Source: Klebsormidium nitens
Taxonomy: Eukaryota; Plantae; Klebsormidiophyceae
DNA length: 32,378 bases
Direction: 5' to 3'
Assembly: GCA_000708835.1 (NCBI GenBank)
Contig: DF237661.1
Coordinates: 14,637-47,014 of the forward strand
The notes beneath the pieces were generated by a model. It saw nothing but the letters and a program-made list of their open reading frames with translations, searched no databases and was not told where the DNA came from. The position numbers and the translations under genes are program-made. Each line of letters opens with the position of its first letter. The first letter of the stretch is position 1. Below are positions 1-31,449 of this stretch, piece by piece.

Positions 1-3000
1 TTATCCACCAATCACCAGCGCTGGTCAGTTCCTGGTCAGTCACAGAGGAAAGCTGACAGCTACGACGAGATTGTGGAAGGTCGCCTTCACGTTCTGTGGA
101 TCTTTGGAAGAAACATAAAGGGACAGTCGGTTGCTGTCAAAGCTCCTTGTCCAGCATTTCTGTATGTTGATGCTCCAAAGAACTGGTCTCAGAAAGAGGA
201 GAAGATAGTGGGGCAAGAGCTGTACAGGTGTGTCGCACATGAGTACCCTGGCAGCCTCCTCAGCTGCACACACGTGAGACGCAAGCGGTTTTTTGGCTAC
301 CAAGGAGACCAGGACTTTGACTTCTACAAACTCACCTTTGTCTCGACTGACGCGTTGAGGATGTGCTCCAACGTGCTGAGGAAGCGCGCCCTCAACTTCA
401 AAACCAAGGGCATCACCCACACTTTCACGGTGTACGAGTCGAACGTGGACCCAATCATCCGGTTCCTCCACGAACACGGGCTCGAGTCGTCGGGATGGAT
501 GAGGGCTGTCGGTGTTGAACCTGTTGACAAGTCCAAGAAGGAGACCACGTGCGCCCTCGAGTACCATTGCAGCAGTGGCGACCAGATCACTCCACACTCT
601 ACCAATAACGTGGCCCCATTTGTTCAGGTGGGTACTGTTGGACTCTCAAATGATCNNNNNNNNNNNNNNNNNNNNNNNNNNNNNNNNNNNNNNNNNNNNN
701 NNNNNNNNNNNNNNNNNNNNNNNNNNNNNNNNNNNNNNNNNNNNNNNNNNNNNNNNNNNNNNNNNNNNNNNNNNNNNNNNNNNNNNNNNNNNNNNNNNNN
801 NNNNNNNNNNNNNNNNNNNNNNNNNNNNNNNNNNNNNNNNNNNNNNNNNNNNNNNNNNNNNNNNNNNNNNNNNNNNNNNNNNNNNNNNNNNNNNNNNNNN
901 NNNNNNNNNNNNNNNNNNNNNNNNNNNNNNNNNNNNNNNNNNNNNNNNNNNNNNNNNNNNNNNNNNNNNNNNNNNNNNNNNNNNNNNNNNNNNNNNNNNN
1001 NNNNNNNNNNNNNNNNNNNNNNNNNNNNNNNNNNNNNNNNNNNNNNNNNNNNNNNNNNNNNNNNNNNNNNNNNNNNNNNNNNNNNNNNNNNNNNNNNNNN
1101 NNNNNNNNNNNNNNNNNNNNNNNNNNNNNNNNNNNNNNNNNNNNNNNNNNNNNNNNNNNNNNNNNNNNNNNNNNNNNNNNNNNNNNNNNNNNNNNNNNNN
1201 NNNNNNNNNNNNNNNNNNNNNNNNNNNNNNNNNNNNNNNNNNNNNNNNNNNNNNNNNNNNNNNNNNNNNNNNNNNNNNNNNNNNNNNNNNNNNNNNNNNN
1301 NNNNNNNNNNNNNNNNNNNNNNNNNNNNNNNNGCTAACAAAATCTCTGCTACCACTAAGTAATGGTTGGGCCTCTGACCTCAATCCTAGACAGCCCCAAT
1401 GGCTGCTTCATCCGCTGGATGCTGACAGCCGCTTGCACGTTCATCACGTCCATCTTCATCTGGCTGTCTTACCGGGGCATGCAACAGATATCTGACAGGG
1501 GCGGCGTACGCCTGACCAGTACAGAAAAGTCAACAAGAAACTTCCTCTTCTTACTCTTGTTTGCTCTAGCCGCATACCTGTTCTTCTCGATGTACAAGGC
1601 TGTAGACTGCTACCTCTGATTGCAGGTCAGCTTCGACATCGAGTGCGCTTCGGCTGACGATGGCTTCCCGGACGCCCTCCGAGAAGGCTGCGAGGTCATC
1701 CAGATTGGATCTACCGTTCAGATCCTCGGCCAGCCCGAGCCCGTCCTCAAGCACATCGTCACTTTGAAGGAGTGTCGGCCGATCCTGGGCGTTGAGGTGG
1801 AGAGCTTTGACACGGAGCGGGAGGTCCTCGAAGCCTTCATCAGGCTCTTGCGCAGGGTAGACGCCGACATCCTGCTCGGCTGGAACACCTTCCAGTTCGA
1901 CATGGACTACATCTTCAAGCGGGCCGCGAGGTGCAAGATCAGGCCGTTGATACTTGGAAAGCTCGTGGCCGAGGAGAGTACCTCCAAAGAGATGACCCTC
2001 CAGTCTGCAGCATTTGGGAGCAACGCATACAACCTGGTGACGACGCCCGGGGTCCTCCACCTGGACATCATGGAGGCTGTCAAGCGCGAGCACAAGGTGA
2101 GCTACCATTCTGGACAATCCTTTGACCTTTGCCTGAGTGAAGAGGCAGGACACGAGGACAAAGAAGCCACATGACGTCACTTCTTCCATTGCAGCTTCCC
2201 AGCTACAGCCTGAAGGAGGTCTCCAAGACGATGCTGCCTGAGTCGGGCGCAAGCAACCAGAAGGTCGACCTACCCCCAAAGGAGATCTTCCGGCTCTTTC
2301 GGGAAGGCAGCTCTGCAGGCATCACTCAGATCGCAGAGTACTGCGTGCAAGACACCGCGCTACCCCTGAAGATTGCAAACAAGCTCTGCACGGTGGGGAA
2401 CGCCATCGAGATGGCCAAGTGCAGCTGCGTCCCGGTCGACTACCTGCTCAAACGGGGCATGCAGATCAAGGTCTTCTCCCTCATCCTAAAGTACACCATG
2501 GCGCTCGGCTACGTCATCCCTGTGATGCCACGAGAGAACGGTGCTAAGAGGTCAGCAGGTGACAAGAGCGACAAGTACGAGGGGGCCACCGTTTTGGACG
2601 CGAAGACCGACGTGTATATGCGGTGCATCGTCACGCTCGACTTTGCCTCCCTTTACCCCAGGTGAGAAATGCTGCAAAGCAACTGAAGGCTTGTTTGAGG
2701 CATCTGTTGGATCCATTCAAAAACCGCATGATACTGTAAACAACGGTGAGCTTCCGCATATACACGGATGGAGACGAACTTTGAAAAGTATTTCAAAATT
2801 CGGGACCCCTTCTTTTTTGCTATAGGAGGGGGGTATGAAACGCCTGCTCATCCGCGCATCTGCGCGAGCCTCAGGCCGTGTGTATTTCAGATACATGCAA
2901 CTTGCAATTACTCGTGCAGCATCATCCGCGCCCACAACATGTCGTACGACACCCTCGTCATGGACCCCCGGTACCTCAACATCCCAGGAGTGGAGTATGC

Positions 3001-5497
3001 CAAGTTCGAATGGCAGGAACCTTCGGGGCCGAAGACAGCGTACTTTGTGCAGAGCCGTGAGGGAGTGCTTTCAAAGCTCCTGAGCGACTTGGCCGTGTGG
3101 CGGAAGGACGCCAAAGGGGTCATGGCTGCCGCTGAAAGGCAGGGGGACAGGGCTCTCGAGGCGATCATGAACGGGTGAGTCCTTGCCAAAGTTGTTCAGA
3201 ATTACTGCGCTCTCCTCTGCCATATCTTGCAGCATGTTCCTGCATGGCAACGCGATGATCCAAACCACAAATTTCTTCTTTTGCTCAATGGCAGGAAACA
3301 GCTGGCCTACAAGATCATGATGAACTCGGTGTACGGGTTCTGTGGCGCGACGAGGGGCATGCTACCATGCGTAGAGATTGCTGCAGCCGTCACGTCCACG
3401 GGCCGGCACATGATCGATCACTCCAAGCAGATGGTGGAGACGCGCTACCCGGGCAGCCAGGTCGTCTACGGAGTGAGCGTAAAAGAGGCACCTCCGGGAA
3501 TGTTCAGCTGTCTGGGATCTTGAAGGTTGAGTATGTGACATCCTGTCAACTTGACGGTCTATCAGCTGACGTTCTGTCATTTGAGATTGTCAACTGACAA
3601 TATCTTCTGTTTCCAGGATACGGACTCCATCTTCGTGTCCTTCAAGGACGACCTGCGCGACATGCACGAGGCGTTCAGGCTGGGGAACGAGGCCTCGGAG
3701 CTCATCACGAAGACGTTCAAGCGGCCGAACAAGCTGGAATTCGAAAAGGTCTACTGCCCGCTGCTGCTGATTGGGAAGAAGAGGTACTCTCAATCACTTT
3801 CTCGTCTTCCGTGTCTTTGTGCTCGTTCTCTCCTTGCGAACGGACGACTTTCGGATGGCCTTCCCTTTATGCACGGCGCACTTGACGCTGCCTTCAATGG
3901 CCGTCAGCTTGCACCTCCTTGGTGGATCGGTGGCCTTGCTGCTGCTCACAAGGTGGTTGCACTGCCTTGGCATCTTCCGTGCAACCACCTTAGAAAGTTG
4001 CATCATGCTCTCGCACGAACAGGTACACGGGGCTCAAGTACGAGAAGGACCCGACCAAGCCCAAGGGAATCGACACAAAGGGCCTGCAGCTGGTGAGACG
4101 AGACAGCGTGCCCCTTGTCCGGGAGGTTTCGAACGCGATCCTCGACTCCATCCTGTACAAGTGGGACGTCATGGGCGCCCGCGTCCAGGCTCGCAAGGTG
4201 GTCAAGGACCTCCTCGAGGGCAGGATCCCGATCGAGAAGCTGACGCTGACGAAAGCGCTCAGGACTGGCTACAAGAACCTCGACCTACCCCACCTGGCGG
4301 TGGCGCGCAAGCTGGAGATGCGGGACCCTGGCTCCGGGCCAAAGCCTGGTGACAGAGTCCCGTACGTTCTGATCGACACGGGGAACTCTAAGGACAAGCA
4401 ATCTGAGAAGGCTGAAGACCCGGCCTACGCTGTCAGGATGGGGCTACCCTTGGACTTTGAATACTACATGGTAAGGGGTCAGGTTTACACTGCACTGATT
4501 ACGCTAGTTTCCACCTCAGCGCACCCCTTGTTCCCTTCTTTGTTGCATAGTGATGCTTCTCCCAGAACCGCCCGCCAGGGGACTGCCATCTAGCACCAGA
4601 AAACGCATAGGGATGCTGACCACGGACCGCGGTCAAGTAGTTGGGGAACTTTGCTGGCCGCTTGGGTCGCTTTTGGCCTTTAACCAGCTTCCAAACACCG
4701 GTCTTTGGGTTCTGTGCATAACGTCTCCCACCTGCACTAGTCCCAGCTGCTACGTTCAGACGTGCTAGAAGCTCTTGCTGTCTCTTGGATGGCACCCGTG
4801 CCTTTGCCGGTCGGCTCCTTGATGGTTCGCCAGAGGCCAGCCTCCACCTCAGCGCACCCTTTGCACCTGTTCTTGTTGGATAGTGATGCTTCTGGTATGC
4901 CCTGCCACCGGGCGACTGCCAAGTGGCTCCAGAGAACGCATAGGGATACTGTCCCCGAACCTGGGTCAAGTAGCCAGGGAACTTTGATGTTCTCTTGGTG
5001 GCAGTGCGTGCGGTGACAGGCACGACAATCGCGGGGGTGACATGGACCGCAGTGGGGACTCGGTTTGCAGAGCCGTGCTTGCCTGTCAAGTATATCGCCT
5101 CTGATGTGCGTTTCCACTTCAGACCACTCTTCCCTTTTACCGCAATCACGTAGAAAGGGTCACCGTGCTTGTCCGTTCCCCGACGCACCTCGTTGAAAAA
5201 CTGGGGACGTGGCAGAGTCATTGTTCCAGATAACCTAGACAAAGAAAGAAATCCCGGCACCCCTCGCAGGAGCACCAGTTGAAGACGCCCCTCGTGACCC
5301 TCCTGGGACTCTTTGTCAAGAGCGGCAACCCGGCCGAGCAGCTGTACGGGGACCTGATGCGGGCCTTCAAGAATGGGAAGAAGAAGCAGAGGATGATCGA
5401 TTCAATGTTTAAAAAGCAGGCGCCTGCCCCGAACGCGGCCTCCAAGTGGAAGGAGATGCTACAGGCCAACAATGAGCACCTAGGTAGAGGAACATAG
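1..5497 (+). CDS. polB: Family B DNA polymerase, 8 exons, 5' end uncertain or outside window
   Basis: Exons <=73-627, 1626-2096, 2195-2661, 2920-3174, 3295-3472, 3617-3783, 4023-4470, 5270-5497. Splicing restores VAPFVQ|VSFDIEC (ExoI), REHK|LPSYSL, DFASLYPS|IIRAHN (region II), NG|KQLAYKIMMNSVYG (region III), YG|DTDS (region I), KKR|YTGLKY..KGLQLVRRD and EYYM|EHQLKTPL. About 920 aa counting from position 73. Confidence 0.96.
628..1625 (+). other. polB intron 1 (GT-AG, phase 0); contains an N gap and a nested sense ORF
   Basis: cag|GTGGGT ... ctgatTGCAG|gtc; the join gives APFVQVSFDIEC. Confidence 0.88.
1362..1619 (+). CDS. 85-aa two-TM membrane protein nested in polB intron 1
   Basis: ATG-initiated ORF with two hydrophobic helices (WMLTAACTFITSIFIWLSY; FLFLLLFALAAYLFFSMY). 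The stop lies 6 nt before the acceptor. Confidence 0.65.
   Translation: MVGPLTSILDSPNGCFIRWMLTAACTFITSIFIWLSYRGMQQISDRGGVRLTSTEKSTRNFLFLLLFALAAYLFFSMYKAVDCYL
2097..2194 (+). other. polB intron 2 (98 nt, phase 0)
   Basis: aag|GTGAGC ... cttccattGCAG|ctt; restores EHKLPSYSL. Confidence 0.92.
2662..2919 (+). other. polB intron 3 (258 nt, phase 2)
   Basis: cccag|GTGAGA ... cgtGCAG|c; restores SLYPSIIRAHN. Confidence 0.93.
3175..3294 (+). other. polB intron 4 (120 nt, phase 2)
   Basis: aacgg|GTGAGT ... tttcttcttttgctcaatgGCAG|g; restores NGKQLAYK. Confidence 0.9.
3473..3616 (+). other. polB intron 5 (144 nt, phase 0), splits the catalytic YGDTDS motif
   Basis: gga|GTGAGC ... ctgac..tcttctgtttcCAG|gat. 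Confidence 0.95.
3784..4022 (+). other. polB intron 6 (239 nt, phase 2) with nested antisense ORF
   Basis: aagag|GTACTC ... gaaCAG|gtac; restores KKRYTGLKYEKDP. Confidence 0.92.
3794..4006 (-). CDS. 70-aa basic C3H zinc-finger-like microprotein nested antisense in polB intron 6
   Basis: QC-x15-C-x9-C-x2-H (QCNHLVSSSKATDPPRRCKLTAIEGSVKCAVH) followed by a K/R-rich tail. The ORF fills 213 of 239 intron nt. Confidence 0.55.
   Translation of the reverse strand: MMQLSKVVARKMPRQCNHLVSSSKATDPPRRCKLTAIEGSVKCAVHKGKAIRKSSVRKERTSTKTRKTRK
4471..5269 (+). other. polB intron 7 (799 nt, phase 0) with nested antisense gene
   Basis: atg|GTAAGG ... ccctcGCAG|gag; restores FEYYMEHQLKTPL. Confidence 0.92.
4499..5221 (-). 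CDS. 240-aa basic, internally repeated protein nested antisense in polB intron 7
   Basis: Starts MTLPRPQ. Two ~50-aa repeats (KFPxYLTxVRGQxPYAFSGAxWQSPGGR...GALRWxLA) with much third-position divergence. TGTAA lies 9 nt after the stop. Confidence 0.85.
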   Translation of the reverse strand: MTLPRPQFFNEVRRGTDKHGDPFYVIAVKGKSGLKWKRTSEAIYLTGKHGSANRVPTAVHVTPAIVVPVTARTATKRTSKFPGYLTQVRGQYPYAFSGATWQSPGGRAYQKHHYPTRTGAKGALRWRLASGEPSRSRPAKARVPSKRQQELLARLNVAAGTSAGGRRYAQNPKTGVWKLVKGQKRPKRPAKFPNYLTAVRGQHPYAFSGARWQSPGGRFWEKHHYATKKGTRGALRWKLA

Positions 5498-5511
5498 GAG
5501 GGTGGGTGCAC

Positions 5512-6420
5512 CTAAGCAACACGCCATGTACAGGCTTTTGGATCTAGCTTGAAGTTCACCACACCTGATACTGGCCGTTTCTTATTGTCGAGCCACGTCG
5601 TCCTGCAGCTTGTGGCTCCCTGGGCCACTGTATTCGCTGCAACCGCAGTCTTGTACTTTTTCTGAACCATGCCGAGAACAGTAGGCGCGCTGCAATCGAC
5701 CGCCGATAGTGTGCATGCATTGGGAGTTGGTGCAACGGGCGCCCGGGGNNNNNNNNNNNNNNNNNNNNNNNNNNNNNNNNNNNNNNNNNNNNNNNNNNNN
5801 NNNNNNNNNNNNNNNNNNNNNNNNNNNNNNNNNNNNNNNNNNNNNNNNNNNNNNNNNNNNNNNNNNNNNNNNNNNNNNNNNNNNNNNNNNNNNNNNNNNN
5901 NNNNNNNNNNNNNNNNNNNNNNNNNNNNNNNNNNNNNNNNNNNNNNNNNNNNNNNNNNNNNNNNNNNNNNNNNNNNNNNNNNNNNNNNNNNNNNNNNNNN
6001 NNNNNNNNNNNNNNNNGGCGGCTTGGGCGCCTTGGGTGGAGCCGGCGGCTTGGGCGCCTTGGGGGGCTTTGGCGCCTTGGGCGCCTTTGGCGCCTTGGGA
6101 GGAGCGGGCGGTTTGGGCGCTTTGGGAGGCTTTGGCGCCTTGGGGGGCTTTGGCGCCTTGGGGGGCTTAGGGGATTTGGGCGCTTTTGGTGGTTTGGGAG
6201 CTTTTGGGGGCTTGGGTTCGCTACTGGCCTTCTTAACACACGCCTTGTACTTGAACGGGTTTTTTAAGCATGTCACTCGGGCCATCATGCCCTTGAAGAA
6301 CTTCTTTATGCGTGCCCAAAACCACCAAAGCAGAACGACAATCAGCACAACTGGTATGACGATGGGAAGGAAGGGTGCAACAAAGGAGAATAGCATGGAT
6401 ATCATGTAGAACACAATCAT
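5512..6420 (-). CDS. Membrane-anchored Pro/Lys/Ala-repeat protein (putative virion or surface protein); spans a gap
   Basis: N-terminal hydrophobic helix, long PKAPKP repeats and a Cys-containing C-terminal domain. Pro-Ala-Pro-Lys-type repeats are typical of chlorovirus surface proteins. Confidence 0.75.
   Translation of the reverse strand: MIVFYMISMLFSFVAPFLPIVIPVVLIVVLLWWFWARIKKFFKGMMARVTCLKNPFKYKACVKKASSEPKPPKAPKPPKAPKSPKPPKAPKPPKAPKPPKAPKPPAPPKAPKAPKAPKPPKAPKPPAPPKAPKPXXXXXXXXXXXXXXXXXXXXXXXXXXXXXXXXXXXXXXXXXXXXXXXXXXXXXXXXXXXXXXXXXXXXXXXXXXXXXXXXXXXXXXXXXXPRAPVAPTPNACTLSAVDCSAPTVLGMVQKKYKTAVAANTVAQGATSCRTTWLDNKKRPVSGVVNFKLDPKACTWRVA
6017..6216 (-). repeat. 9/18-bp coding tandem repeat (PKA/PKP)
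   Basis: Repeated ggcgccttgg/ggggcttt units that run into the N gap. Confidence 0.9.
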
Positions 6421-6891: not shown

Positions 6892-7908
6892 ATGGCTGCC
6901 GCCCACTCCACCGCCGAACCATGCATCCCAATGAAGCCCGTGGCTTCCCTCGACCGTCGCGAGACCCTGAAACTGCAAGCAATGGAGGGCGTTGTCCGAA
7001 AGTGTCACTGCTTTGATGGGGCCTTTGTCTTTGGTGGGTTCGTCAGGGACTACATCGTCAACCAAGTCCTCCCAAATGACGTTGACCTGAGCTTTAAGAA
7101 CGTCGGGGACATCACGACCTTTCTCCGAATCCTCAGCGAGCTTTACGAGATTGATCAGGTCGAGAAGCACGCCGGGTACGGATGGGGGATGCGGCGCTTC
7201 GAGACTTGGAAGGCCCGTGTGGGAGCTTATGGGGCAGACGGGGGCGTTGTTTACTTCACGGTTGACCTGGTGTCTGGCGCGAAGGAGGATATGGCGTCTA
7301 GCTTGTGCGACTTCACGTGCAACATGCTCTCCCTGTCCCGTACCGGCATCGAGCTCGTATCCGTCCCCCCCAGCCTGCACCTCCGCTCCTCCCCGATACA
7401 AGACGTGCTCTCTGGCATAAACGCCCGGGAATTCTCGGTGGTGGAAGGCAAGGTGACGCTGCTCCAGTCAGAGGTTGGGCCTTACGCTGCAAAAGTTTGC
7501 AGACGCGCCAGCGTGATGGTCCGCAGGGGCTGGCATATGACGAGAGGGAAGACTTTTCAAGCTTTCCTTGTCGAGGGTCCTGAGGCCCGCGCAGAGTGCT
7601 CGATCTGCACCTCTGAGTTTGAGAGTGGTGAGGTTGCAATCCAGACCATATGCCACCACCATTTCCATGCAACGTGCATCTCAAAGTGGTTGCTCGAGGG
7701 CCGCAGCACCGTCACCTGCCCGGTGTGCCGAGAGGAGCACTTTATGATGCCAGCCGCATCCATCGCTTTGACCAAGCCAGCCAAGCCCGCAGAGGCAGAC
7801 GAGGCTGACACGGACGAGGACGAGGACGACTCAGATTACGACCCCGAGGATGACGAGAACAACGTGTCTGTGCTGACCATCGAAGTTCCTAGACCCCGAC
7901 GTCGGTAG
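6892..7908 (+). CDS. Class II nucleotidyltransferase-like domain fused to a RING-H2 finger and acidic tail
   Basis: FVFGGFVRDY..PNDVDL and DFTCN (CCA/poly(A) polymerase head motifs); CSIC..CHHHFHATCISKW..CPVCR (RING-H2). Confidence 0.8.
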   Translation: MAAAHSTAEPCIPMKPVASLDRRETLKLQAMEGVVRKCHCFDGAFVFGGFVRDYIVNQVLPNDVDLSFKNVGDITTFLRILSELYEIDQVEKHAGYGWGMRRFETWKARVGAYGADGGVVYFTVDLVSGAKEDMASSLCDFTCNMLSLSRTGIELVSVPPSLHLRSSPIQDVLSGINAREFSVVEGKVTLLQSEVGPYAAKVCRRASVMVRRGWHMTRGKTFQAFLVEGPEARAECSICTSEFESGEVAIQTICHHHFHATCISKWLLEGRSTVTCPVCREEHFMMPAASIALTKPAKPAEADEADTDEDEDDSDYDPEDDENNVSVLTIEVPRPRRR

Positions 7909-14534: not shown

Positions 14535-15800
14535 ATGGACGGCCCGTTGATGCGGGGGACGACCCTCAATATTGAGTACCTCCTGCCTTGCTCTGGCTTT
14601 GAGTACAGCTTCAATATTTATCCTTGGAATAATAATCTCAGCAGCGGCAACTGTTACAGCTACACTTTGGGAAACGCCCACGTTCAGGGGCAAAAGGCCC
14701 AGCCAGGGGACATTGCAATGCTTTTTCGGGACCTTGTAGAAAAGTACAATCTAGGCGAGCCGGGCGTGGATCTGACATGCGGCTGCGCTGACGTGGTTAA
14801 CTCTGTGCTAGCGGACGGGGTCGCATGCGCACGCCTGCAGGACCTCGCGCTCGATGGGACCTACAACAAGCAGCGCACTACCATCAAGCCCATCGGGCTG
14901 ACCGCCAGGCCGGAGACCGGCTGGTACAAGATAGTGTGCGTGATGGGAACCGAGGCAAACGGCGACGCAGACTTCCACTTTGTCAGGCAGGACATCATGG
15001 ACATGTACGATCTGTACTCCATCACTTTGCATGGCTATCATGACTTTAACAGGCCCCAATCTTGCTTCTGGTTCGGCACGCCGCTCTGGCAGGGGGGCAA
15101 GGGCGGCTTCTTCACAACCACCCCCAGCCCCTATGACGTGCTCGGCATCCACCCGTTCACCGGGAGCCGTTACGTTGAGTCGATCTTCACAGACACGTCC
15201 CGTGACCCAAGCGCGTACGGCCTGAAAGGCAATCTAAGGGCTGCCCACTCCTACATCTCCGGAGCGAAACCGATCGATCAGAACGACCCGAATCTCAATC
15301 GGCCGCGCACGAATATCGACCTGCACGTTTCGAGGATCCCCGAGTATATTCTAAGCGGCAAGAACTTCATCCCCTCGCCTTTCTGGCTCGTTTCTGTGGA
15401 CCCGTTCGTCGAGGACTGTGCAAACAAGGTGCGCAGGCGCCAGCAGGAACTGTCGCGGATCTACGAGGGCCGCCCGGGCTACGAGCTGCACAAGAAGACG
15501 GTCGATGACGCGGCCAAGGACTGCATCGATATCTGCAACAAGCGCCGAGGCATGCCGCCCGTCCACAGCCTGATTGGCACCTTCAGCGAGAAGCTGGGGT
15601 TTGGCACGGGCGCCCTGAACACCGATGGCGCATTCAAGCTCAACTTTGACCCCTCCAAGGCCTGCCGTTACAGGGGAGGCGTTCATTACCAGAGCGTCTG
15701 CACAGCTTTCAGCGTCTTGCACAATCATGGCGTAACGGCCATCTCGGCGTTCGATCGGCCGAGCGGCCGCAAGACAAAGAATGCTACAAGACAGGTGTGA
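14535..15800 (+). CDS. Conserved phycodnavirus-type protein, possible Cys-His hydrolase
   Basis: GNCYSY, QPGD, YKIV, DFHFVRQD and FSEKLG motifs. Confidence 0.7.
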   Translation: MDGPLMRGTTLNIEYLLPCSGFEYSFNIYPWNNNLSSGNCYSYTLGNAHVQGQKAQPGDIAMLFRDLVEKYNLGEPGVDLTCGCADVVNSVLADGVACARLQDLALDGTYNKQRTTIKPIGLTARPETGWYKIVCVMGTEANGDADFHFVRQDIMDMYDLYSITLHGYHDFNRPQSCFWFGTPLWQGGKGGFFTTTPSPYDVLGIHPFTGSRYVESIFTDTSRDPSAYGLKGNLRAAHSYISGAKPIDQNDPNLNRPRTNIDLHVSRIPEYILSGKNFIPSPFWLVSVDPFVEDCANKVRRRQQELSRIYEGRPGYELHKKTVDDAAKDCIDICNKRRGMPPVHSLIGTFSEKLGFGTGALNTDGAFKLNFDPSKACRYRGGVHYQSVCTAFSVLHNHGVTAISAFDRPSGRKTKNATRQV

Positions 15801-18306
15801 TCGTGTCCAGCAGCCTCAGGGGGAGGAGCTCCGTTCCGGTTAGGCACAGAAAGTAAAAGATGGCGGTCTTTGAGAGAAGGTGGGATGTCTCCCGGACGCA
15901 CGAATTGCCTTGGCCTGTGAGTTGCAGCACACCGTAGACGGTTTGGAAATGCAGGACCTGGCCGTTGTTGGTGACAGTGGCCCGCCTCATTGGGACGGGG
16001 ACGAGCCCGGTCGCACTCTGGACCACCTCTAGGAGTGGGAACTCATCAAAGATGCGACGAGCCTCTCTTGAGAGCAGCTCACGCAATCGCATGATGTTGC
16101 TCATCAAGGCACCCTCCATCGCCGACGCACGGCCCCCATCGACAGCTCGCAGGTCCTGTGGGATCTTGTTAGAGAGCTCCGCGGATGACTGAATGTACCT
16201 CTGTGAAGCCGCTCCGGACAATGGCAGCGAGTGCCCGGGACCCTTCCAACGCCTGTAAAACATCACCATGAAGAAGATAAATTTGAACATCTGCATCAGT
16301 ACCAGGCGATCCTGCCGGTGGGCCTCCAAAAAGTGTGGCAGATGCAGGAGCTCCAACAAGCCTCCCTTTGCCTGCAAGTACTCTGGTGTTGCCAGCTTGT
16401 CCAAGATACCACTCACCCGGCGCGTACCCAGATTTGCCAGGTTCTCAAAGTCCGCGATGTTTGGCTGGGGGCGCCCTGCATCATACAAGATGCCAGCCGC
16501 CCAAGACCTGAAGGACTTTGCGACACGCTGGTCTCCTGCAGCAAAGGTGAGCGCGTCGTCGTCCGCAAGGGGTTCCAAGGTGTTGTAGTTCATCGGCCGT
16601 GCAACTCCCGGCACCACGCCAAGGATCCACATGCCTGACGGATGCGCCAGCGATGCGACATCACGGACGTCCGGCATCCGCGTGCTCTTCTCGTCCTTGG
16701 AAAGAAGGAGCTCCGGGATGTTGATCTCCAGGTGAAGCCATGTCTGGAATCGAGGCGGGCTCGCACGCCCTCTCGGGGCTGGAGCAGCCACAGCGTTCCG
16801 ACCGGCCGCAGGCCCCAAGCTGCTAGCAAGCAGGGCGCAAGCCACATACTTTCTGATAGTCCGCACTGTGTGCGCGTAGAGCGGTGGCAGCCGCAGGGCT
16901 TCGCGCATGAGAGCGATCATGTAGGTGATGATTGCAGGACCACAGGAGGTGGAGTCGGTCTGTCCGGGAACATCGGTGCCATTAACGTGCTGCACAGGCC
17001 CTTGGATCACGTTCGCGTCCCTTAGAATCCGTTCCACGTTGGAGAGCTCATCGGGCATAGAATTCATCAGTGGGTCATAGCCAATCAGGCGTGCATTGTG
17101 AGCATCGTACACAACCAGCGTCCAGTGGTAATTTGCGACATTTATGGGCATAAACGCGTACCGCATGCCTTGTGGTGCCCTTCGTGCGTTGAAGGCCTCT
17201 GCAATGTTTTGGAACAGATAAGGTGCCAGCTTTGTGGCCATCGTTCTAGGGCTGTTGTTCAATCTCCACACATGCTCATTGTTTACATTCAACAGCGGAC
17301 CGAGTTGCCCATGGGTCGCCATTGTGTACACTGTGCTGGGATATGCGGAGCAATCACCTCGATCGCTGATGAGCTTGCACATACCGTCCACAATGCCGTC
17401 ACTTATGTTCTCATCCTTGTGCAGCGTGTGCAGATCTCCTCTAAGAACCGTGACCTGATCGGGGGCTGCCCCGACAGTGACGTGAGCGCCGATGTCATGG
17501 AGTTCATCTCGCGTCTCTACAAGTGTTTGAGCCTGCTCGTAGACCCTGTTGTTAAAGCCTGACAGAGTGAATGGAAGTGGTCTTTGCGGGTCCGCCGTCC
17601 CCCGCGTCCGCAGCCGTGCACGGCTCTTGGTCCCGGGAGCCCTCTTGAAAGCGTACATCTGCACCGGGGAGCTGATTGGCTGCCTTTTTCGAGTTCGCGT
17701 TGCGATCGGTGCCGACGGAGTTGTCACAGAAGACTTTCTGGGATGAGTTGGTGGTGTCTTTTGGGCAGCTTGCGTTGGGGACTTGTGAGGGATTTGTCTA
17801 GGGCTCGGCGTTAGTGTCCGCCTGGGGCTCGGCGTTGGTGTCCTTCTCGGACTTGGGGTTGGCGTCCGCCGGGGACTTGGAGTGGGCGTCCTCCTTGGAC
17901 TTGACGTTGGTGTCCTTCTAGGGCTTGGTGCAGGCCTCCTGGGGCGCGATCTCCGAGGAGTTTTCTTTGTATGACTTGTTGTTCTCTGGGGCACCCGTGC
18001 CGGTGCTGCCTGCCTCCCCTGCGTCCGTTGGGGTGCACCTTGACGTGCCAGCACACGGTCACACAAGCTCTGCCTGCTTCTCCCAAAGAGTGGACGCCTC
18101 TCTGCTTTCAGCTGCCTGTACATGGCTGCCCTGCCTTGAATCGACCGCGGGAGAGCAGCGTTGCCTGATGCGTACACCATGAATTCGATCCATCCGTTTG
18201 GCCTCTGACACATTGGGCGACCCTGTGAGTTGACCTTGAAGCAGTTCTCCCCAGCATCCCGGCAGTGCGGGCCTCCTCGGCTTATCGTTGCTGGAACGCG
18301 TGGCAT
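15784..18306 (-). CDS. Multidomain protein with Ulp1/SENP (C48) peptidase domain
   Basis: FMPINVANYHWTLVVYD..YDPL..Q.DS.SCG gives the His/Asp/Gln/Cys catalytic set. Basic SPRR repeats lie N-terminal and a YRRWKGPG motif C-terminal. Confidence 0.85.
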   Translation of the reverse strand: MPRVPATISRGGPHCRDAGENCFKVNSQGRPMCQRPNGWIEFMVYASGNAALPRSIQGRAAMYRQLKAERRPLFGRSRQSLCDRVLARQGAPQRTQGRQAAPARVPQRTTSHTKKTPRRSRPRRPAPSPRRTPTSSPRRTPTPSPRRTPTPSPRRTPTPSPRRTLTPSPRQIPHKSPTQAAQKTPPTHPRKSSVTTPSAPIATRTRKRQPISSPVQMYAFKRAPGTKSRARLRTRGTADPQRPLPFTLSGFNNRVYEQAQTLVETRDELHDIGAHVTVGAAPDQVTVLRGDLHTLHKDENISDGIVDGMCKLISDRGDCSAYPSTVYTMATHGQLGPLLNVNNEHVWRLNNSPRTMATKLAPYLFQNIAEAFNARRAPQGMRYAFMPINVANYHWTLVVYDAHNARLIGYDPLMNSMPDELSNVERILRDANVIQGPVQHVNGTDVPGQTDSTSCGPAIITYMIALMREALRLPPLYAHTVRTIRKYVACALLASSLGPAAGRNAVAAPAPRGRASPPRFQTWLHLEINIPELLLSKDEKSTRMPDVRDVASLAHPSGMWILGVVPGVARPMNYNTLEPLADDDALTFAAGDQRVAKSFRSWAAGILYDAGRPQPNIADFENLANLGTRRVSGILDKLATPEYLQAKGGLLELLHLPHFLEAHRQDRLVLMQMFKFIFFMVMFYRRWKGPGHSLPLSGAASQRYIQSSAELSNKIPQDLRAVDGGRASAMEGALMSNIMRLRELLSREARRIFDEFPLLEVVQSATGLVPVPMRRATVTNNGQVLHFQTVYGVLQLTGQGNSCVRETSHLLSKTAIFYFLCLTGTELLPLRLLDTITPVL
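17795..17930 (-). repeat. 24-bp coding tandem repeat (SPRRTPTP), about 6 copies
   Basis: Visible in both DNA and translation. Confidence 0.9.
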
Positions 18307-19496: not shown

Positions 19497-20822
19497 TTAG
19501 ACCACATGCTTCCATGCTCGGCCCCTCTCAATCCTCGTAAGGAGCTGTCTACTAACACTGTACTTCTCCGCGCGCTTCTTCTGAGAAAGTCCGTCGGTTC
19601 CACGCGTGAGGCGGATCTCCCTGACTTCATCTTCTGTTAGCTTCAGTGGCCTGCCTCGGTGTCTCACAGTGTCGATGTTGTTCTCACTGTTTGTACCTGG
19701 CACTAGATGATCTGGGGCGCAACATGCCCTATTGTCGCAAAGATGGCGCACGATCTGATCCTTCTTCAGAGGTTCCCCGAGCTTGATCTCGCAAGCGAGG
19801 ATGTGGGAAAGCATCTTCTTGCCGTGTATGGACATCTGGCCGTATCCACAGAGTAATGATCCAGTCCAGAACTGGCACGGAGTGTCCACGAAAGGACTAG
19901 CCGCTGGTGTCACTGTCAGCTTCTTCTTGAGGCGTCGGAGCGCTTCCTCGTACATCCCACTCGTCCAAGTGCGCTCATTCGCTCGAACCCTTCTCAAGCG
20001 CTCCATCTCGCGCTTTCCCTCTCTACTATCCCCAGATAGGTGAGCCCATGCGTGGCCTTTGTCGATACTTTGGACAATATGCAGCGATACTCCAAGCCGT
20101 TCGGCTCTCTGCTTCTGTGTCTCGTGCCCAACCTGCCCATATCTGGTGTTGGTCGGTTTTGAAGTCTTAATCTTCCGAGCGAGGTCCTCTGTGATCTTTG
20201 TGAAGTTACTAGCCGCACCTCTTCGCAGGGTACCGTTGGCAATCTTGTCTTGAAAATTATTCTCGGACTGTGTGCCATACGCCAAGTGGGTCGGCTCGAA
20301 ACAGCGCGGCTCGTTGCACAAGTGCCTGATGACCATCCTGACGCCGTTTGCGTTCTTCTCCGCAGGAGGCTCGCTCAGGTTGTGATGAAGCATGTATGCA
20401 GCCCGATGTATGCCCAGAGTGAGGTCTCCGAGCACTACTTTCTTGTAATCAGTATCGGCAAGCAGGCAGCCGTTCTCTTGGCGAGATCCAAATTTTTGAA
20501 GTCGGGCCCATGCGCGAGCAACGTCCAGGCCCTTCTTTCTTGGTACTTTCTGGAAGTGCTCGACATTCATGCATAATTTGTTGCCACAGGTACGCAAACA
20601 CTCATGCGTAACATCAAGGGGGTCATTGGGATAATGTAGATCCCAAAGAAAGCGGTGTGAGGCTAAATTCCTGCGTTCTTTGTTAAAAGTGACACAAACT
20701 CTGGGTGATCCGCCTTCACTCTGGCTCCTTACTTGACCTGTCCATAGTTGACAACCACGTGCGTCAGCTGGCGCTGTCTTTGCCCTGATTGCGAGCAGCA
20801 CAGCAGCATTCCAGTCGGCCAT
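19497..20822 (-). CDS. Free-standing HNH (His-Me finger, Zn-binding) homing endonuclease-like protein with three HNH modules and two HTH modules
   Basis: RHLCNEPRCFEPTHL..GTQSEN, RHLCDNRACCAPDHL..GTNSEN and a degenerate RTCGNKLCMNVEHF. Two KxTED..R.I...A...VS....I..G.AW.H HTH repeats. Start MADWN. Confidence 0.88.
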   Translation of the reverse strand: MADWNAAVLLAIRAKTAPADARGCQLWTGQVRSQSEGGSPRVCVTFNKERRNLASHRFLWDLHYPNDPLDVTHECLRTCGNKLCMNVEHFQKVPRKKGLDVARAWARLQKFGSRQENGCLLADTDYKKVVLGDLTLGIHRAAYMLHHNLSEPPAEKNANGVRMVIRHLCNEPRCFEPTHLAYGTQSENNFQDKIANGTLRRGAASNFTKITEDLARKIKTSKPTNTRYGQVGHETQKQRAERLGVSLHIVQSIDKGHAWAHLSGDSREGKREMERLRRVRANERTWTSGMYEEALRRLKKKLTVTPAASPFVDTPCQFWTGSLLCGYGQMSIHGKKMLSHILACEIKLGEPLKKDQIVRHLCDNRACCAPDHLVPGTNSENNIDTVRHRGRPLKLTEDEVREIRLTRGTDGLSQKKRAEKYSVSRQLLTRIERGRAWKHVV

Positions 20823-20913: not shown

Positions 20914-23120
20914 CTACGGACCATGTGGGAAGCATCTTGCGTACTCCTGTGCAACTACCTCGTACAGCTCTGGTGGCAGGCCTTCTTGAGGTGCCTCTTG
21001 CCCCTCATCCTCGCCAAGCAAGTCTACGCCGAAAATCCAGCAGCGCTTCTTGAGCCGCAGCCCGCTGTCACGGGGGTATGGCGGATCAATGGCCTCTCTG
21101 CCTGCTCTGAAGAACAGCAGGAGCCCCATCTCAGCCCAAATGCCGTTTTGCGCCAGNNNNNNNNNNNNNNNNNNNNNNNNNNNNNNNNNNNNNNNNNNNN
21201 NNNNNNNNNNNNNNNNNNNNNNNNNNNNNNNNNNNNNNNNNNNNNNNNNNNNNNNNNNNNNNNNNNNNNNNNNNNNNNNNNNNNNNNNNNNNNNNNNNNN
21301 NNNNNNNNNNNNNNNNNNNNNNNNNNNNNNNNNNNNNNNNNNNNNNNNNNNNNNNNNNNNNNNNNNNNNNNNNNNNNNNNNNNNNNNNNNNNNNNNNNNN
21401 NNNNNNNNNNNNNNNNNNNNNNNNNNNNNNNNNNNNNNNNNNNNNNNTGCAGCCCGTCCAGCTCGCCGACGCTGTACAGCATGCGCCCGATGAAGGCATA
21501 CAGCCAGCGGCAAGCCTCCTCCGGGAGCCGCTGAGCCTCCAAAATCTGCTGCAGGTTCGGGGTCGGCAGCTGGTACCAGTCCAGGTCGCCATCCACGACG
21601 CGAAGCCGCGCAGCTTCGTCGAACGGGAGGTCAAAGTACTTGCTCGCGCACACCTCCGGCTTCAGGAGCTGGTCGACCCTGCCTCCCGCATACGGTATGA
21701 ACAGGTCCCTCACGTCCTCGCCCACCAGCAGGCCGCTGCCCGGCTTCAGGATGGAGTCCCTCAGCCAGGCAACGTACACCCCGTTCTTGAAGGCGAACAC
21801 GTGGCGGTCCTTGTGGATGACAGGGAAGCGCGGGTCGTTCCTGTTTGCAGCGATGTGGGCGGGGATGTCCGTCTGGAAGCTCCCGTTGGAGGTTAAGAGG
21901 CTGTACAGGCGCTCATCGGCATACACGTTGCAGGTGTCGAAGAGGGCCTGCTGGATGGTCGTCTCCACCTTGAAGGCGCGCGTGTTGTAGCCGTCGCTCT
22001 TGATCGCCGAGTAGCAGAGATCTTCGCAGCCCTTGACCTCCAGAGCGCGCAGGCCGTACCGCGCCGCCCTGTCATACCACGCGCTGATGAGCTCTGTCCT
22101 CGCGCAATCAGCCTCCTTTGGCTGGGTGGTTGGCGCCTCCGGGCCAGGCGGCGCAAACTGCAGCAGCCCGGCCTTGCCACGGCTGATTGCCGACCTCACC
22201 GCCTCCAGCCGCCTGACGACGTTGTCATGGTCTGTGGGTGGGAGATGTCCGTCCTTGAAGGCTCCGTTCAGGCCCTGTGCGATGCTCGCAAACTCTGCCC
22301 AACACCGGCGCGAGGCTGCCTCGATGCGGGTGGCGTCAAAGTCGGTCTCCGCATCAAAGTAGCTGCACATGCTCGAGAGGGCAGCAGCCGGAGACACGGG
22401 CCTGCCGACGTTCCATTTCCTCTCGAGTGCCTCCAGAGCTTCCAGCAGAGAGGCCGAGCCCTGCGCTGGGCCATGTGATTGGCTGTGCACCAGGCTGCGC
22501 TCCGGGCTGCGCTCCCCGCTGCTCTCTGGGCCCCCAGGGCTGGAGGGAAACGTCCGGGGTGGGGTGCCGTAGACATCTTCTGCGTCCTCCGCAAAAAGCC
22601 GTCTCCTCACACCAACCCGATCCGACTCAGAGTCAGACTCCTGAAGACCGAAAGAAAGTGTCAGAGATCCTCTGGAATGTCCGCTGCAGCAAGCCTTCCT
22701 TCAGGTCCACCACAACAAGAGACGCATGCGGTGGGTCTATCCAAAGAGGCACTCCAGAGAGCGCCATGCTGAAAAGGCAGGCAGAGTGACATGCTGGCGT
22801 CATAGCTAATGAAAGACAACCAAAACTTTGCTCACAATGATGCGCCTGCCCCGCTTCCTGCGAAGCAGCGCTGGTAGCATGGGCCCATCGTCGTCCTCCT
22901 CCACCGAGCGCTCCCTGTCAAAGGCAGCGTACATGGCCATCCCATCTTCTGGCGTCCCTTCACCCTCCGAAATGAAGCCATCCAAGGAGCCCGGGGTGTC
23001 GCTGCCGTCATCAGACCTGGGCCCGTACAGCTCTCCCTCAATGTCCTCGCCATTGCGCTCTTCCAGCTGCTCGTTTTGAATCTCAGCCTGGTCAAAGAGA
23101 TGCGCCTCTGAGTCCTCCAT
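20914..23120 (-). CDS. D5-like primase-helicase; at least 2 exons; the helicase core is in or lost at the gap
   Basis: Exon 23120-22836 (acidic) splices to 22640 onward (RRII|ESDSESDRVGVRRR). D5_N motif RHVFAFKNGVY; WLYAFIGRMLYSVGELDG; C-terminal YPRDSG..WIFGVDL after the gap. Confidence 0.82.
22641..22835 (-). other. D5 gene intron (195 nt, phase 0)
   Basis: att|GTGAGC ... CTGACactttctttcggtcttCAG|gag; branch point, pyrimidine tract and frame all fit. Confidence 0.85.
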
Positions 23121-23335: not shown

Positions 23336-25515
23336 ATGGACACCGTCAAGAGATGGGCGTACAAGAAGGGGTTCATGCTGAAAAAGGGCTCAACTGGAGA
23401 GACGCACCTTCTGTTCAACAAGGGTCGCCTGCAGATCCTCAGGGACGCAGAAGCAGCCTTCCTGGAGACCTATGCCAAGTGGATTGAGGATGGGCGGGAC
23501 CTGTTTGTGATTGAGCAGAGGACCTCCCCAACCTTTCGCATGTTTGTGGACTTGGACTATGAGACAAAGAAAGAGGTGTCAAAAGATGAGCTGAAGACCG
23601 TCTGCCAGTGTATCCAGCGCACGGTGCTTGAGCAGGTTGGAGAACATGCTGCCAGGTGTGTAGTGAGCTGCGCAGACAAACCAAAGGCCACAAAGGACGG
23701 GCTTCTCAAGACCGGAGTGCATCTGGTGTGGCCAGACATCCAAGTTGACTCTGAAAACGCCCTCCGGCTGCGCACCTGGGTCCTGGCAGGCCTGCATGAG
23801 ACCTTTGGTCAGAATGACTGGCCCAAGATGGTGGACATCTCTGTCTACACCAGGGCCGGCCTGCGCCTCAATGGCTCAATCAAGCGGGCTGAGTGCACAT
23901 GCAGAGGGCGGGATGATGCTTGCAACAGGTGCCAGGGGAAAGGAGAGGTCTTTGACAGGAGAAAGTATGCCCCGCTGGTGTGCTATGCCGGACCAAGCGA
24001 GAGCCCTGAGCTGCTGGAGCTGTGCATGTCATCCATCAGCGCCCGGGTACGACCCTTACTGCACCTGGGTTAACAAAAGATCAGCGGGGAGCCGTTTCTC
24101 GGTCAAGCTTTCCCATCTCTTCTTCCTATTGTTCACCTCCAAGCCTTCTTTCTCGCTACAATGTCACTCCAGTCAGGGTAGCCTTCTTCAACTGTGATCA
24201 AAAGATGGGGAAGGGTCTCATCAGAGGGGTAAAGCTTGATATCCACGCGCCTCTCTACAAACCTGTAGAATACTCGCGCCTCGTCATATGTGCCCTTGAC
24301 TCTTCTCTGCAGAGTCGGGAAGTGCTGTAGAAAGTCTTGCACCTCCAACGCAATCCAGTGTCTGCTGATCCGCTCGCCTGACTTTGCTGTGTACTGAAAC
24401 CCACTGTTGACCAATTTGAGCCACAGCCAGGTTGCATCATAATCCTCTATCCTCATTACAGTGGCCCTGTAAGGGCTGGACAGGTGCTCATACCTAAAGT
24501 ATCTCTTGGAGCTGACTTTCAGCATGTCTTTCAGGGTGAAATTTTCCCCTTGCCATGTATTAGTGTTCAGGAAGGCCCCTATCACCCCATCCAGGATTTT
24601 GAAAAGCTCAAGTCGAGCGAGCCTGTCCTCAACCCCGTGCTTTATGTTGTCTGTTAGCGCATCACGAGTACAGCTGTCCATCTTTGGCTGGCTTCTTGCA
24701 AGGGAAATAGAAAAAGCTGAACCAATCGACAGAGTGGAAGATATGTCGTTCGTAGCTTGTTGAGCTGGACAATTGCTTCGAGCTTTCAATAATCCAAGCA
24801 AGAGCTGCGGTCCTGAACACACACTTCTTCTGCAGGTGAGGTTGACGTCCATTAGGGTCCCCTTTGGCGAGGAGCGCGAATCAACCCACATACCACAATG
24901 CGAAAGCATGCTCGAGCTTGAGCCTGAGCTTCAGGAGAGGTGTCACCAGGGGAAGGGGTCCCGCCTGGAGGCCGACAACACTCTGATGGGGCTGCTGACA
25001 AGGGAGCTCGGAGAAGCCTTCCCAAGCTGCTTCAAGGATGGCGAGGAGCTCTCTGACATTGTTCAGATGTCCGGCGACGATGGCAACCCCTACTTCCTGG
25101 TTCACACCAATTCCTGCTTCTGCCACAACCTGGGGCGATGCCACAACTCCAACCGCGTGTACTTTTACATTGACTCACAAAGGCTCCTCCAAAAGTGCTT
25201 CTGCACGTGCAACACGACCGAGGGCAGGAAGATGGGCTTGTGCTCTCAGTACAGCAGCGCACCTCATCCGGTCAGCACGGAGCTGAGGCGAGCCCTGTAT
25301 CCCGGCATTGACGACCTACTCATCGACCTGGACAGATTGACACGGAGCTGCAGCCTCGCGTGCAGCACATCTTGCAGAACACAAGCACCCTGGAGTCGCT
25401 GGACCAGCTCAAGGCCAGTGACCCATTGGAGTCACTCGCAACCGAGGCTCTGCTGGCGAGCGTGGGCTGGCAGAGGTGTGCAAATTCGTTTTGGTTGGTT
25501 ATTGCAAGGGCATGA
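23336..25515 (+). CDS. Archaeo-eukaryotic primase (PBCV-1 A468R-like) with C-terminal Zn-binding domain; one intron and an apparent frameshift
   Basis: FRMFVDLDY, KTGVHLVWP, D.SVY..GLRLNGS and FCHNLGRCHNSNRVYF..QKCFC. Exons 23336-24046 and 24836 onward; frame change near 25335. Confidence 0.85.
24047..24835 (+). other. Primase intron (789 nt, phase 0) with nested antisense gene
   Basis: cgg|GTACGA ... cttcttctGCAG|gtg; joins SSISAR|VRLTSIR. Confidence 0.8.
24133..24681 (-). CDS. 182-aa unknown protein nested antisense in the primase intron
   Basis: MDSCTRDAL...ARKKAWR; globular-looking composition; lies wholly inside the intron. Confidence 0.75.
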   Translation of the reverse strand: MDSCTRDALTDNIKHGVEDRLARLELFKILDGVIGAFLNTNTWQGENFTLKDMLKVSSKRYFRYEHLSSPYRATVMRIEDYDATWLWLKLVNSGFQYTAKSGERISRHWIALEVQDFLQHFPTLQRRVKGTYDEARVFYRFVERRVDIKLYPSDETLPHLLITVEEGYPDWSDIVARKKAWR

Positions 25516-30632: not shown

Positions 30633-30638
30633 CCTAAG
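30633..30638 (-). promoter_or_regulatory. CTTAGG candidate promoter motif
   Basis: 34 nt before ATG 30598; overlaps the stop of the PARG-like gene. Confidence 0.55.
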
Positions 30639-31449
30639 TGCTTGCTGAAAAGGTGTCTCTGAAGATCAGGTAATTGTTACCGTCAAACTCTGTTACGGAG
30701 AGGATTGCAAAGACAATCGCCTTGAAAACTCCCTTGTGTTCCGAGAGAACTTTTCGAAACACTGCAGCAACGTCAGCGGGTGGGTTGTGCCAGGCACCGC
30801 ACCCCAGTGCACCCAGGACCAGGGAGTCGTGCCCCTTGTCTGCTCCCACCTGGAGTATTAGACGTACCTTATTCTCAAGGATCCTTCTGTCGGCCTCGGA
30901 CAGATGACCGCTGTCTCTACCGTCTCCTGACGCAAACTCGAGTTGCGGGTACTTGAGGCCGGGGCAAGCAATGAAGTCCAGCTTGAACGGTCGCGCGAGA
31001 AATTTGTACTCCGCTTCTTCACTTGCCCGGAACACGGTGACGTCCGGAGAGTAGATTGCCTCGTTTGCAGCTATTGGGTAAAGACGTTCTCGCGTTGGAT
31101 CGTTGTGCAGGCTCATGCAATAGTTTGTCCTCCGAAACAGCGACTCTTCCTGAGCGGACGCCCCTATGTCAACACAGCCTCCTGCAAAACAGTCATCTGC
31201 GAGGTTCAGGACCATAGGTCTGAAGCCTTCCTGCTGCAACTGGCGCGCAGCCATTATAGTGTCCTCTTTTTTCACTCGGATCTCTGTGTCTTTGTACCTC
31301 TGCGGCAGTGCCTGGTCCGGGCGTAGGATGTGCTTTTCGCATTTTGGCGGACGTGCCAGCCTTCCTGAGATGCCTTTGGTCTCTTCCCAAACCTTGATAC
31401 GCACGTCTTTGATGTGAGGTTTCTGGTCTCTCTTCTGCTCCATGAACAT
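30634..31449 (-). CDS. Microbial-type poly(ADP-ribose) glycohydrolase macrodomain (TIGR02452/DUF2263 family)
   Basis: VLNLAD..FAGG..IGASAQEESLFRRT and LVLGALGCGAWHNPP..VA.VF. Confidence 0.88.
   Translation of the reverse strand: MFMEQKRDQKPHIKDVRIKVWEETKGISGRLARPPKCEKHILRPDQALPQRYKDTEIRVKKEDTIMAARQLQQEGFRPMVLNLADDCFAGGCVDIGASAQEESLFRRTNYCMSLHNDPTRERLYPIAANEAIYSPDVTVFRASEEAEYKFLARPFKLDFIACPGLKYPQLEFASGDGRDSGHLSEADRRILENKVRLILQVGADKGHDSLVLGALGCGAWHNPPADVAAVFRKVLSEHKGVFKAIVFAILSVTEFDGNNYLIFRDTFSAST

Follow-up and report, generated by a model that had tools for sequence, protein, structure and literature searches.

The window analysed here is a gene-dense stretch of 32,378 nucleotides (nt), with a G+C content of approximately 57% and five N gaps. 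Its first 5488 nt hold a family-B DNA polymerase gene (polB), and within the seventh visible intron of that gene, on the opposite strand, lies an open reading frame (ORF) for a basic protein of 240 amino acids (aa), here called P0001. We present evidence that this ORF is a gene under selection, and consider what its product may do and how it compares with other genes found in viral introns.

The polB locus and its seventh intron

The features at the centre of the analysis are these:

1-5488, plus strand: polB; 5' end beyond the window, eight visible exons
1-627, 1626-2096, 2195-2661, 2920-3174, 3295-3472, 3617-3783, 4023-4470 and 5270-5488, plus strand: polB exons
628-1625, 2097-2194, 2662-2919, 3175-3294, 3473-3616, 3784-4022 and 4471-5269, plus strand: polB introns, all GT-AG
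4023-4470, plus strand: polB exon 7, with the conserved D..YY motif at its end; covers positions 283-439 of the 453 in Pfam DNA_pol_B
4471-5269, plus strand: intron 7, 799 nt, phase 0, GTAAGG...CGCAG, predicted to be spliceosomal
5270-5488, plus strand: polB exon 8, the last, in which the frame continues from exon 7
4499-5221, minus strand: nested gene for the 240-aa basic protein P0001, occupying 90% of intron 7
4835-4984, minus strand: repeat 1 (residues 80-129), predicted to form a three-stranded beta sheet
4502-4651, minus strand: repeat 2 (residues 191-240)
5084-5185, minus strand: N-terminal segment (approximately residues 13-46), with beta strands predicted in a low-confidence model
5222-5269, minus strand: T-rich 48-nt leader with CTAG 17 nt before the ATG; candidate promoter or 5' untranslated region
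4489-4485, minus strand: TGTAA, candidate poly(A) signal of the nested gene, 9 nt after the stop and inside intron 7

When all seven GT-AG introns are taken out of polB, 943 codons remain without a stop; this bears out an earlier note on this DNA, made from the letters alone, which had placed the ORF inside polB intron 7. The polB frame within intron 7 contains seven stops. The visible polB is incomplete at its 5' end, and the number given to intron 7 counts from the window edge. Exons 2, 3, 6 and 7 match Pfam DNA_pol_B_exo1 or DNA_pol_B. Because exon 7 reaches position 439 of the 453 of DNA_pol_B and can be aligned to Pol delta through its final residue, the domain is, as judged by alignment, incomplete at the intron 7 donor. 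Exon 8 by itself had no match in any library searched. Intron 7 is predicted to be removable by the spliceosome, and an Rfam search of window positions 1-6000 (E <= 1) gave no match, that is, no group I or II signature. Introners carry terminal inverted repeats or a target-site duplication and occur in several similar copies; this identity was rejected for intron 7, which has no terminal inverted repeat, a junction repeat of one base per side (no target duplication) and a single copy in the window.

The nested gene, its repeats and its relatives

P0001 has an isoelectric point (pI) of 11.6, with 48 lysine and arginine residues against 7 aspartate and glutamate, and an ORF of its length was reached in none of 2,000 shuffles and none of 1,000 Markov nulls. 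Its two repeats are 75% identical in nucleotides and share 37 of 50 residues; they differ at 37 of 150 bases, distributed over codon positions 1, 2 and 3 as 8, 9 and 20. In the frame of the minus-strand ORF the proportion of synonymous differences (pS) is 0.54 and that of non-synonymous differences (pN) is 0.16, for a ratio of the corresponding rates (dN/dS) of approximately 0.19 (P = 3e-5, Fisher's exact test), and in 20,000 neutral simulations the 37 identities were never reached (mean 27, maximum 36). The synonymous excess is absent in four of the five other frames; the plus-strand frame that shares third positions shows it too (pS 0.49, pN 0.19), but contains five stop codons. The earlier note had claimed that two repeats of about 50 aa keep their amino acids while third positions vary, had proposed counting synonymous against non-synonymous differences between them, and had read the pattern as selection on the antisense frame; the count is biased as it anticipated, and all of this holds. 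Its coordinates for the repeats (4839-4985 and 4506-4650) need adjustment, as the in-register ends are those listed above.

A third repeat copy at the N-terminus of P0001, which the same note had suggested, is not established. Scored against the repeat profile, the N-terminal segment was equalled by 13 of 500 shuffles, an unrelated linker segment by 21 of 500, and the N-terminus of the homologue P0002 by 98 of 500; P0005 was left out of this comparison, as its N-terminal segment runs into the first repeat. Within the N-terminal segment, positions 5110-5127 show an 18-nt likeness to the repeat ends.

Related DNA is present in two runs (X8 and X9) of one study whose organism label differs from that of the window. 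The ORF region occurs there in at least two variants, at approximately 85-95% identity and with both splice junctions kept. One contig, covering 4644-5422, shows 68 differences and has lost a net 27 bases, a number divisible by three; a second, covering 4750-5081, shows 51 differences and is ungapped. Further contigs cross the donor (4450-4627) and the acceptor (5156-5334). In a codon tally that rests on 40 of the 152 differences, 39 of them in the ORF, the 33 changed codons comprise 14 synonymous and 19 non-synonymous changes and no stops (P = 0.02 against 25%). Run X9 also contains a more distant polB, which matches 4405-4476, six bases into the intron, and then continues with approximately 500 unlike bases; another contig of that study has AG directly before exon 8, the acceptor and the first exon 8 codons being retained with loose ends at 5294. 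From these two contigs, a long intron at the intron 7 site appears to be older than its present sequence. No joint skipping intron 7 was found in runs X8 and X9, and viral_contigs yielded no close polB relatives; three viral_contigs loci retrieved by the junction pattern were unrelated and were rejected.

P0001 has four true relatives in two clusters, one comprising P0002-P0004 (Logan, ENA) and the other P0005 (JGI). P0002-P0004 show 38% identity covering 68% of the query P0001, and all four relatives have two repeats, a pI of 11.0-11.5 and no cysteine. A hidden Markov model search of 1.84 billion representatives gave three matches, P0005, P0006 and P0007, of which the last two were rejected as long tandem-repeat translations without the motif. 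The JGI label of P0005, 'anti-sigma factor RsiW', was likewise rejected, as it has no Pfam support. A search for longer homologues of P0002 (350-2000 aa) found none. Across the eight repeats of four proteins (P0004, nearly identical to P0002, is omitted from the alignment) 17 columns are invariant, including PY, SGA, GR, KHHY and G.LR..L, and none of them is acidic or cysteine. Repeat identity within a protein (71-96%) is mostly above that between lineages. As the repeats of P0001 are closer to each other (71%) than to those of other proteins (45-57%), the copies would seem to have been duplicated independently or homogenised. Taken together, the repeat test, the homologues and the related DNA of the other study support the P0001 ORF as an antisense protein-coding gene under selection.

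Its product has no evident family. P0001 and its homologues matched no family in Pfam, PHROGs or the Protein Data Bank (PDB) sequences, with DUF7741 the nearest at E 0.098, and the ESM Atlas gave no usable match for P0001 and one match, at 0.78, for P0002. No HNH, GIY-YIG, VSR or PD-(D/E)XK nuclease motif was found in P0001 or its homologues with Pfam and PHROGs, nor through PDB sequences. The full-length model of P0001, with a mean predicted local distance difference test score (pLDDT) of 46, contains three small beta sheets and one helix, and the single-repeat model (mean pLDDT 66) is a three-stranded sheet made of strands only. The structural comparison that the earlier note had proposed was uninformative: fold searches including Foldseek returned no meaningful match (best Z 3.4 or E above 0.1, from low-confidence models), and the weak rows named SH3, chromo and KOW-like barrels and Pur-alpha repeats. 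On these models the searches indicate neither a new nor a shared fold. From its composition and repeats P0001 is likely to bind DNA or RNA without catalysis, and is likely to be the product of a passenger gene and not a homing endonuclease. The earlier note had likewise proposed a nucleic-acid-binding or virion core protein. That it is a genome-packing core protein, by analogy with other viral proteins, is a real possibility, if slightly less probable than its opposite.

Expression signals, other introns and the viral window

The TGTAA motif lies where the earlier note had seen it, 9 nt past the stop and still within the intron. According to the available portions of PMC3946568 (all our statements on published systems refer to such portions of the works cited), TGTAA precedes cleavage by 16-24 nt in 26 of the 36 mapped 3' ends of PBCV-1, and the PBCV-1 genes with a mapped poly(A) site are all early. 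With this spacing, cleavage would be predicted at 4465-4473, on the intron 7 donor. By this analogy TGTAA is a plausible poly(A) signal of the nested gene. Among the 29 ORFs of the window, only four, including the nested gene, have TGTAA within approximately 100 nt of the stop (0.9 expected, P = 0.01), and this enrichment lends modest support to such a role. On the minus strand, positions 5238-5255 form a pyrimidine run that ends with AG shortly ahead of the nested start and resembles a splice acceptor, and an upstream exon is possible. Two runs guessed to be RNA contain a 226-nt contig at 4311-4536 and a 200-nt contig at 5425-5624, which carry no strand and are possibly DNA.

The word CTTAGG lies upstream of five of the 29 starts (0.3 expected, uncorrected P = 1e-5). 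In the form ACTTAGG it is found 34-39 nt before the starts at 6491, 20822, 27275, 29184 and 30598, and is a candidate viral promoter element. The genes that carry ACTTAGG include four for nucleic-acid enzymes (capping enzyme, RFC-like, YqaJ and HNH) and do not include the nested gene. As the nested gene lacks the CTTAGG word, our guess is that it belongs to a different expression class from the replication genes.

Three further introns of the window contain ORFs:

3794-4006, minus strand: 70-aa basic ORF, 30% lysine plus arginine, occupying 89% of polB intron 6 (3784-4022)
1362-1619, plus strand: 85-aa hydrophobic ORF at the 3' end of polB intron 1, on the same strand as polB
24133-24681, minus strand: 182-aa ORF in a 789-nt GT-AG intron (approximately 24047-24835) of the AEP primase gene

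ORFs as long as these arose in 17 of 1,000 nulls for intron 6, 10 of 1,000 for intron 1 and 5 of 1,000 for the primase intron. Codon usage in the intron 6 ORF is best in its own frame, and the intron 1 ORF stops 6 nt before the acceptor. The flanks of the primase intron match AEP_C962R and Herpes_UL52, and the primase frame resumes correctly past it. Neither the intron 1 nor the intron 6 ORF has a Pfam match, and the primase-intron ORF has none in Pfam or PHROG. A tblastn search of the window with P0001 found only its own repeats, the other intron ORFs being unrelated to it. A 59-aa ORF in intron 3 was rejected as within chance (173 of 1,000 nulls). We regard the three ORFs as candidate genes with weaker support than the intron 7 gene; because they too lie in introns, the virus appears to accommodate additional genes in the introns of its replication genes.

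Several features of these introns may be recorded. Introns 3-6 (starting at 2662, 3175, 3473 and 3784) split the most conserved polymerase motifs: after DFASLYP, before KQLAYK, inside YGDTDS and inside KKRY, the last by intron 6. The intron 6 ORF encodes three cysteines and two histidines; a 6-base direct repeat flanks the intron, within which lies a perfect 13-base inverted repeat (3950-3991). Intron 1 (628-1625) measures 998 nt, of which an N gap takes up 677 nt and could hide another gene. The primase gene appears to shift frame near its end, at 25350-25380, with no evident intron.

Pfam searches of the window identified genes of nucleocytovirus type, namely polB, DUF5759, DUF5764, DUF5901, DUF7197, P9_TM, an AEP primase, an mRNA guanylyltransferase encoded as a stand-alone protein, a YqaJ gene and an HNH gene. 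The best match of the capping enzyme among solved structures is 1CKM (E 6e-18), and the P9 minor capsid protein matches 6NCL (E 3e-20); we take both to be entries of the chlorovirus PBCV-1. By its gene content the window is nucleocytovirus DNA with chlorovirus-like genes, and the best matches together with the nucleocytovirus DUF families suggest an Algavirales-like virus. Between 94 and 100% of sampled words of the window are present in four runs from a single sample; in a second study, which bears the same organism label, 30 of 30 bins are covered. Because these four runs and the second study contain it, the viral DNA is likely to be integrated in, or persistently carried by, one host, which we infer to be a green alga. 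In run X5, also of this organism label, 267 of the 273 changed places against window positions 1340-5740 are C>T or G>A, a bisulfite-like pattern. CpG makes up 6 of the 18 fully converted sites among those listed, and this small and biased sample gives no sign of CpG protection; the full data of the run could reveal methylation of this viral DNA.

Among the neighbouring genes, the free-standing 441-aa gene at 19497-20822 has two HNH-type domains, helix-turn-helix ends and a G+C content below that of its neighbours; it is likely to encode a homing endonuclease, and no surrounding intron was identified. A minus-strand gene at 5512-6420, which converges on the 3' end of polB, encodes a protein with a hydrophobic segment at its N-terminus and numerous Pro-Lys-Ala repeats that extend across an N gap. 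A nucleotidyltransferase-like domain is fused to a RING finger at 6892-7908, an 840-aa Ulp1-type protease with basic Ser/Pro/Arg repeats is encoded at 15784-18306, and a microbial-type PARG at 30634-31449. A probable short minus-strand intron within 22640-22835 joins 22806-23120 to the helicase-like frame below it.

Role of the nested gene and comparison with known systems

We consider it moderately probable that the intron 7 ORF is a selected nested gene, a passenger and not a homing enzyme, whose product binds nucleic acid. The host spliceosome would excise the 799-nt intron and leave polB unharmed. The available text of PMC7019647 describes chloroviruses as having no RNA polymerase and a spliceosomal polB intron. 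As a chlorovirus-like virus is expected to lack its own RNA polymerase (the presence of such a gene cannot be judged from a 32-kb window), transcription of the nested gene would fall to host RNA polymerase II, starting in the 48-nt leader or just upstream of it. If the transcript ended by way of TGTAA, the nested unit would be nearly coextensive with the intron. Paired beta-sheet domains and Lys/Arg linkers would then grip DNA or RNA, with no catalysis; the simplest role would be that of a genome-packing core protein, or else a nucleic-acid-binding helper.

Several points weigh against this account. Codon usage does not favour the P0001 frame over two others. Among the relatives of the other study, 19 of the 33 changed codons alter the residue (on 40 of the 152 differences), as do 7 of the 10 changed repeat codons, none of them, by inspection, on an invariant column. 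Splicing, the minus-strand transcript and the use of the poly(A) signal are predictions from sequence, and a binding or virion function is deduced from charge and repeat layout; the models of P0001 are weak, both at full length and for the single repeat. A late core protein would fit poorly with PBCV-1, where the genes with mapped poly(A) sites are all early. The occurrence of an intron at one and the same site in a more distant relative would also fit an intron-specific role. Searches of viral_contigs and metagenome_contigs located no loci for P0002-P0005 that would place these homologues within introns or as free-standing genes.

An intron-specific role would make P0001 a factor resembling MING-1 of mirusviruses, which would aid splicing or spread by binding the intron RNA or the target site, the intron itself having long occupied one conserved polB site. 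The site does lie in a conserved polymerase motif, the long intron there appears older than its present sequence, the nested unit nearly equals the intron, and MING-1 genes are themselves non-nuclease and fixed in site (PMC12768974). We nevertheless think such a factor rather unlikely, as the other nested ORFs are unrelated to P0001, one being hydrophobic and on the same strand, which resembles varied cargo, and the high repeat identity within proteins would be usual for structural repeat proteins. Another possibility is a shintron with an unrecognised nuclease, in which the two repeats would form a pseudo-dimeric endonuclease and KHHY would provide either metal ligands or a nucleophilic tyrosine. 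Pseudo-dimeric homing enzymes have a comparable two-repeat layout, His-His-Tyr is invariant in 8 of 8 repeats, and the intron interrupts a conserved motif of a core gene; yet the four nuclease signatures found no match in P0001, whereas the same scan easily found the HNH gene at 19497-20822, the seven acidic residues include none that is invariant, cysteine is absent, and runs X8 and X9 yielded no intron-less allele. We judge this very improbable.

The order of events might also have been reversed, with the gene inserted in polB before splice sites were gained around it, or the ORF might be a silent relic, unexpressed in an integrated copy. This is quite improbable, since the ORF is under selection and is kept in relatives of another organism label, and since an active endogenous punuivirus has introns (bioRxiv 10.64898/2026.10.09.758095), although endogenous nucleocytovirus introns have been interpreted as decay (PMC12768974), the downstream primase appears to change frame near 25350-25380 with no evident intron, and the same DNA occurs in two studies of one organism label. 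It differs from the passenger-gene account chiefly in present-day expression. A chance ORF or an assembly artefact in a long intron, to which the five N gaps and the neutral codon usage might point, is scarcely credible given the shuffled and Markov nulls and the synonymous bias, and is refuted by the homologues and by independent contigs across both junctions. A bolder extension of the nested-gene reading concerns a lineage of nucleus-using algal nucleocytoviruses: it would routinely gain genes by making whole cassettes (leader, ORF and poly(A) signal) into spliceosomal introns of replication genes, and the protein with the KHHY repeats would have a new fold that binds nucleic acid and maintains or spreads its intron at a conserved polB site while not being a known nuclease. 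This protein would then correspond, in nucleocytoviruses, to MING-1; we find the whole proposal doubtful.

The nested gene together with the three candidates in 32 kb is an argument that the long introns of algal giant viruses serve as functional space for genes and are not a product of decay. Genes nested in viral spliceosomal introns are in print chiefly for uncultured mirusviruses (available text of PMC12768974); if the alga that carries the present element is in culture, which the run labels suggest, its splicing, its antisense transcript and the use of its poly(A) signal are directly testable. The case argues likewise that the viral gene set is incomplete in pipelines that drop ORFs where they overlap spliced genes. 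For example, the hybrid annotation described in PMC9693826 drops Prodigal genes that overlap spliced models, and nested genes would therefore be discarded.

The portions of PMC12768974 consulted report more than 2,000 genes in mirusvirus introns (334 nucleases, 271 MING-1) and no MING-1 homologues outside mirusviruses, and its authors state that an equivalent of the homing introns had not been seen in other viruses. P0001 resembles MING-1 in that it shows no nuclease signature and that its gene lies within a long GT-AG intron interrupting a viral core gene, at a site kept in close relatives and apparently in a more distant one; compared by description, it differs in residing in a nucleocytovirus polB and not a mirusvirus terminase, and in belonging to a basic two-repeat family with four homologues. 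Like the shintrons of Mirusviricota, the locus has a gene nested in a spliceosomal intron, here a predicted one, that interrupts an essential gene at a conserved site, but P0001 carries none of the HNH, GIY-YIG, VSR or PD-(D/E)XK motifs, and no empty allele was seen in X8 and X9. Host-type introns in nucleocytovirus genes, polB included, are described for chloroviruses (polB a185r and cv-pdg; PMC7019647, PMC3946568) and for algal endogenous giant viruses such as punuivirus (bioRxiv 10.64898/2026.10.09.758095, PMC9693826). Those introns are short (81-98 nt in cv-pdg, mean 176 nt in punuivirus), nested genes are unreported for them in the available texts, and the words 'nested' and 'antisense' are absent from the punuivirus preprint (bioRxiv 10.64898/2026.10.09.758095); here, by contrast, one polB has at least seven introns, three of which hold ORFs.

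As a protein, P0001 is most usefully set beside ascovirus P64, basic DNA-condensing virion proteins (PMC6163548). Both are highly basic nucleocytovirus proteins with repeated small domains and basic linkers, and the pI of P0001 (11.6) and of its homologues (11.0-11.5) exceeds the value of 9 that characterises P64. P0001, however, has no cysteine and hence no 2-cysteine adaptor, has no Ser/Arg tandem repeats, and no sequence likeness to P64 was found. It is therefore not, on this comparison, a P64 member, and P64 may serve as a model for its working mode. The architecture of the locus is that of the nested opposite-strand genes of cellular genomes, but it stands in a compact viral genome and fills 90% of its intron. 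Our literature search, which left most subscription papers outside its reach, found nothing on genes inside nucleocytovirus spliceosomal introns. Genes in mirusvirus introns were known already; the present case adds an unnamed protein family nested in a nucleocytovirus polB intron.

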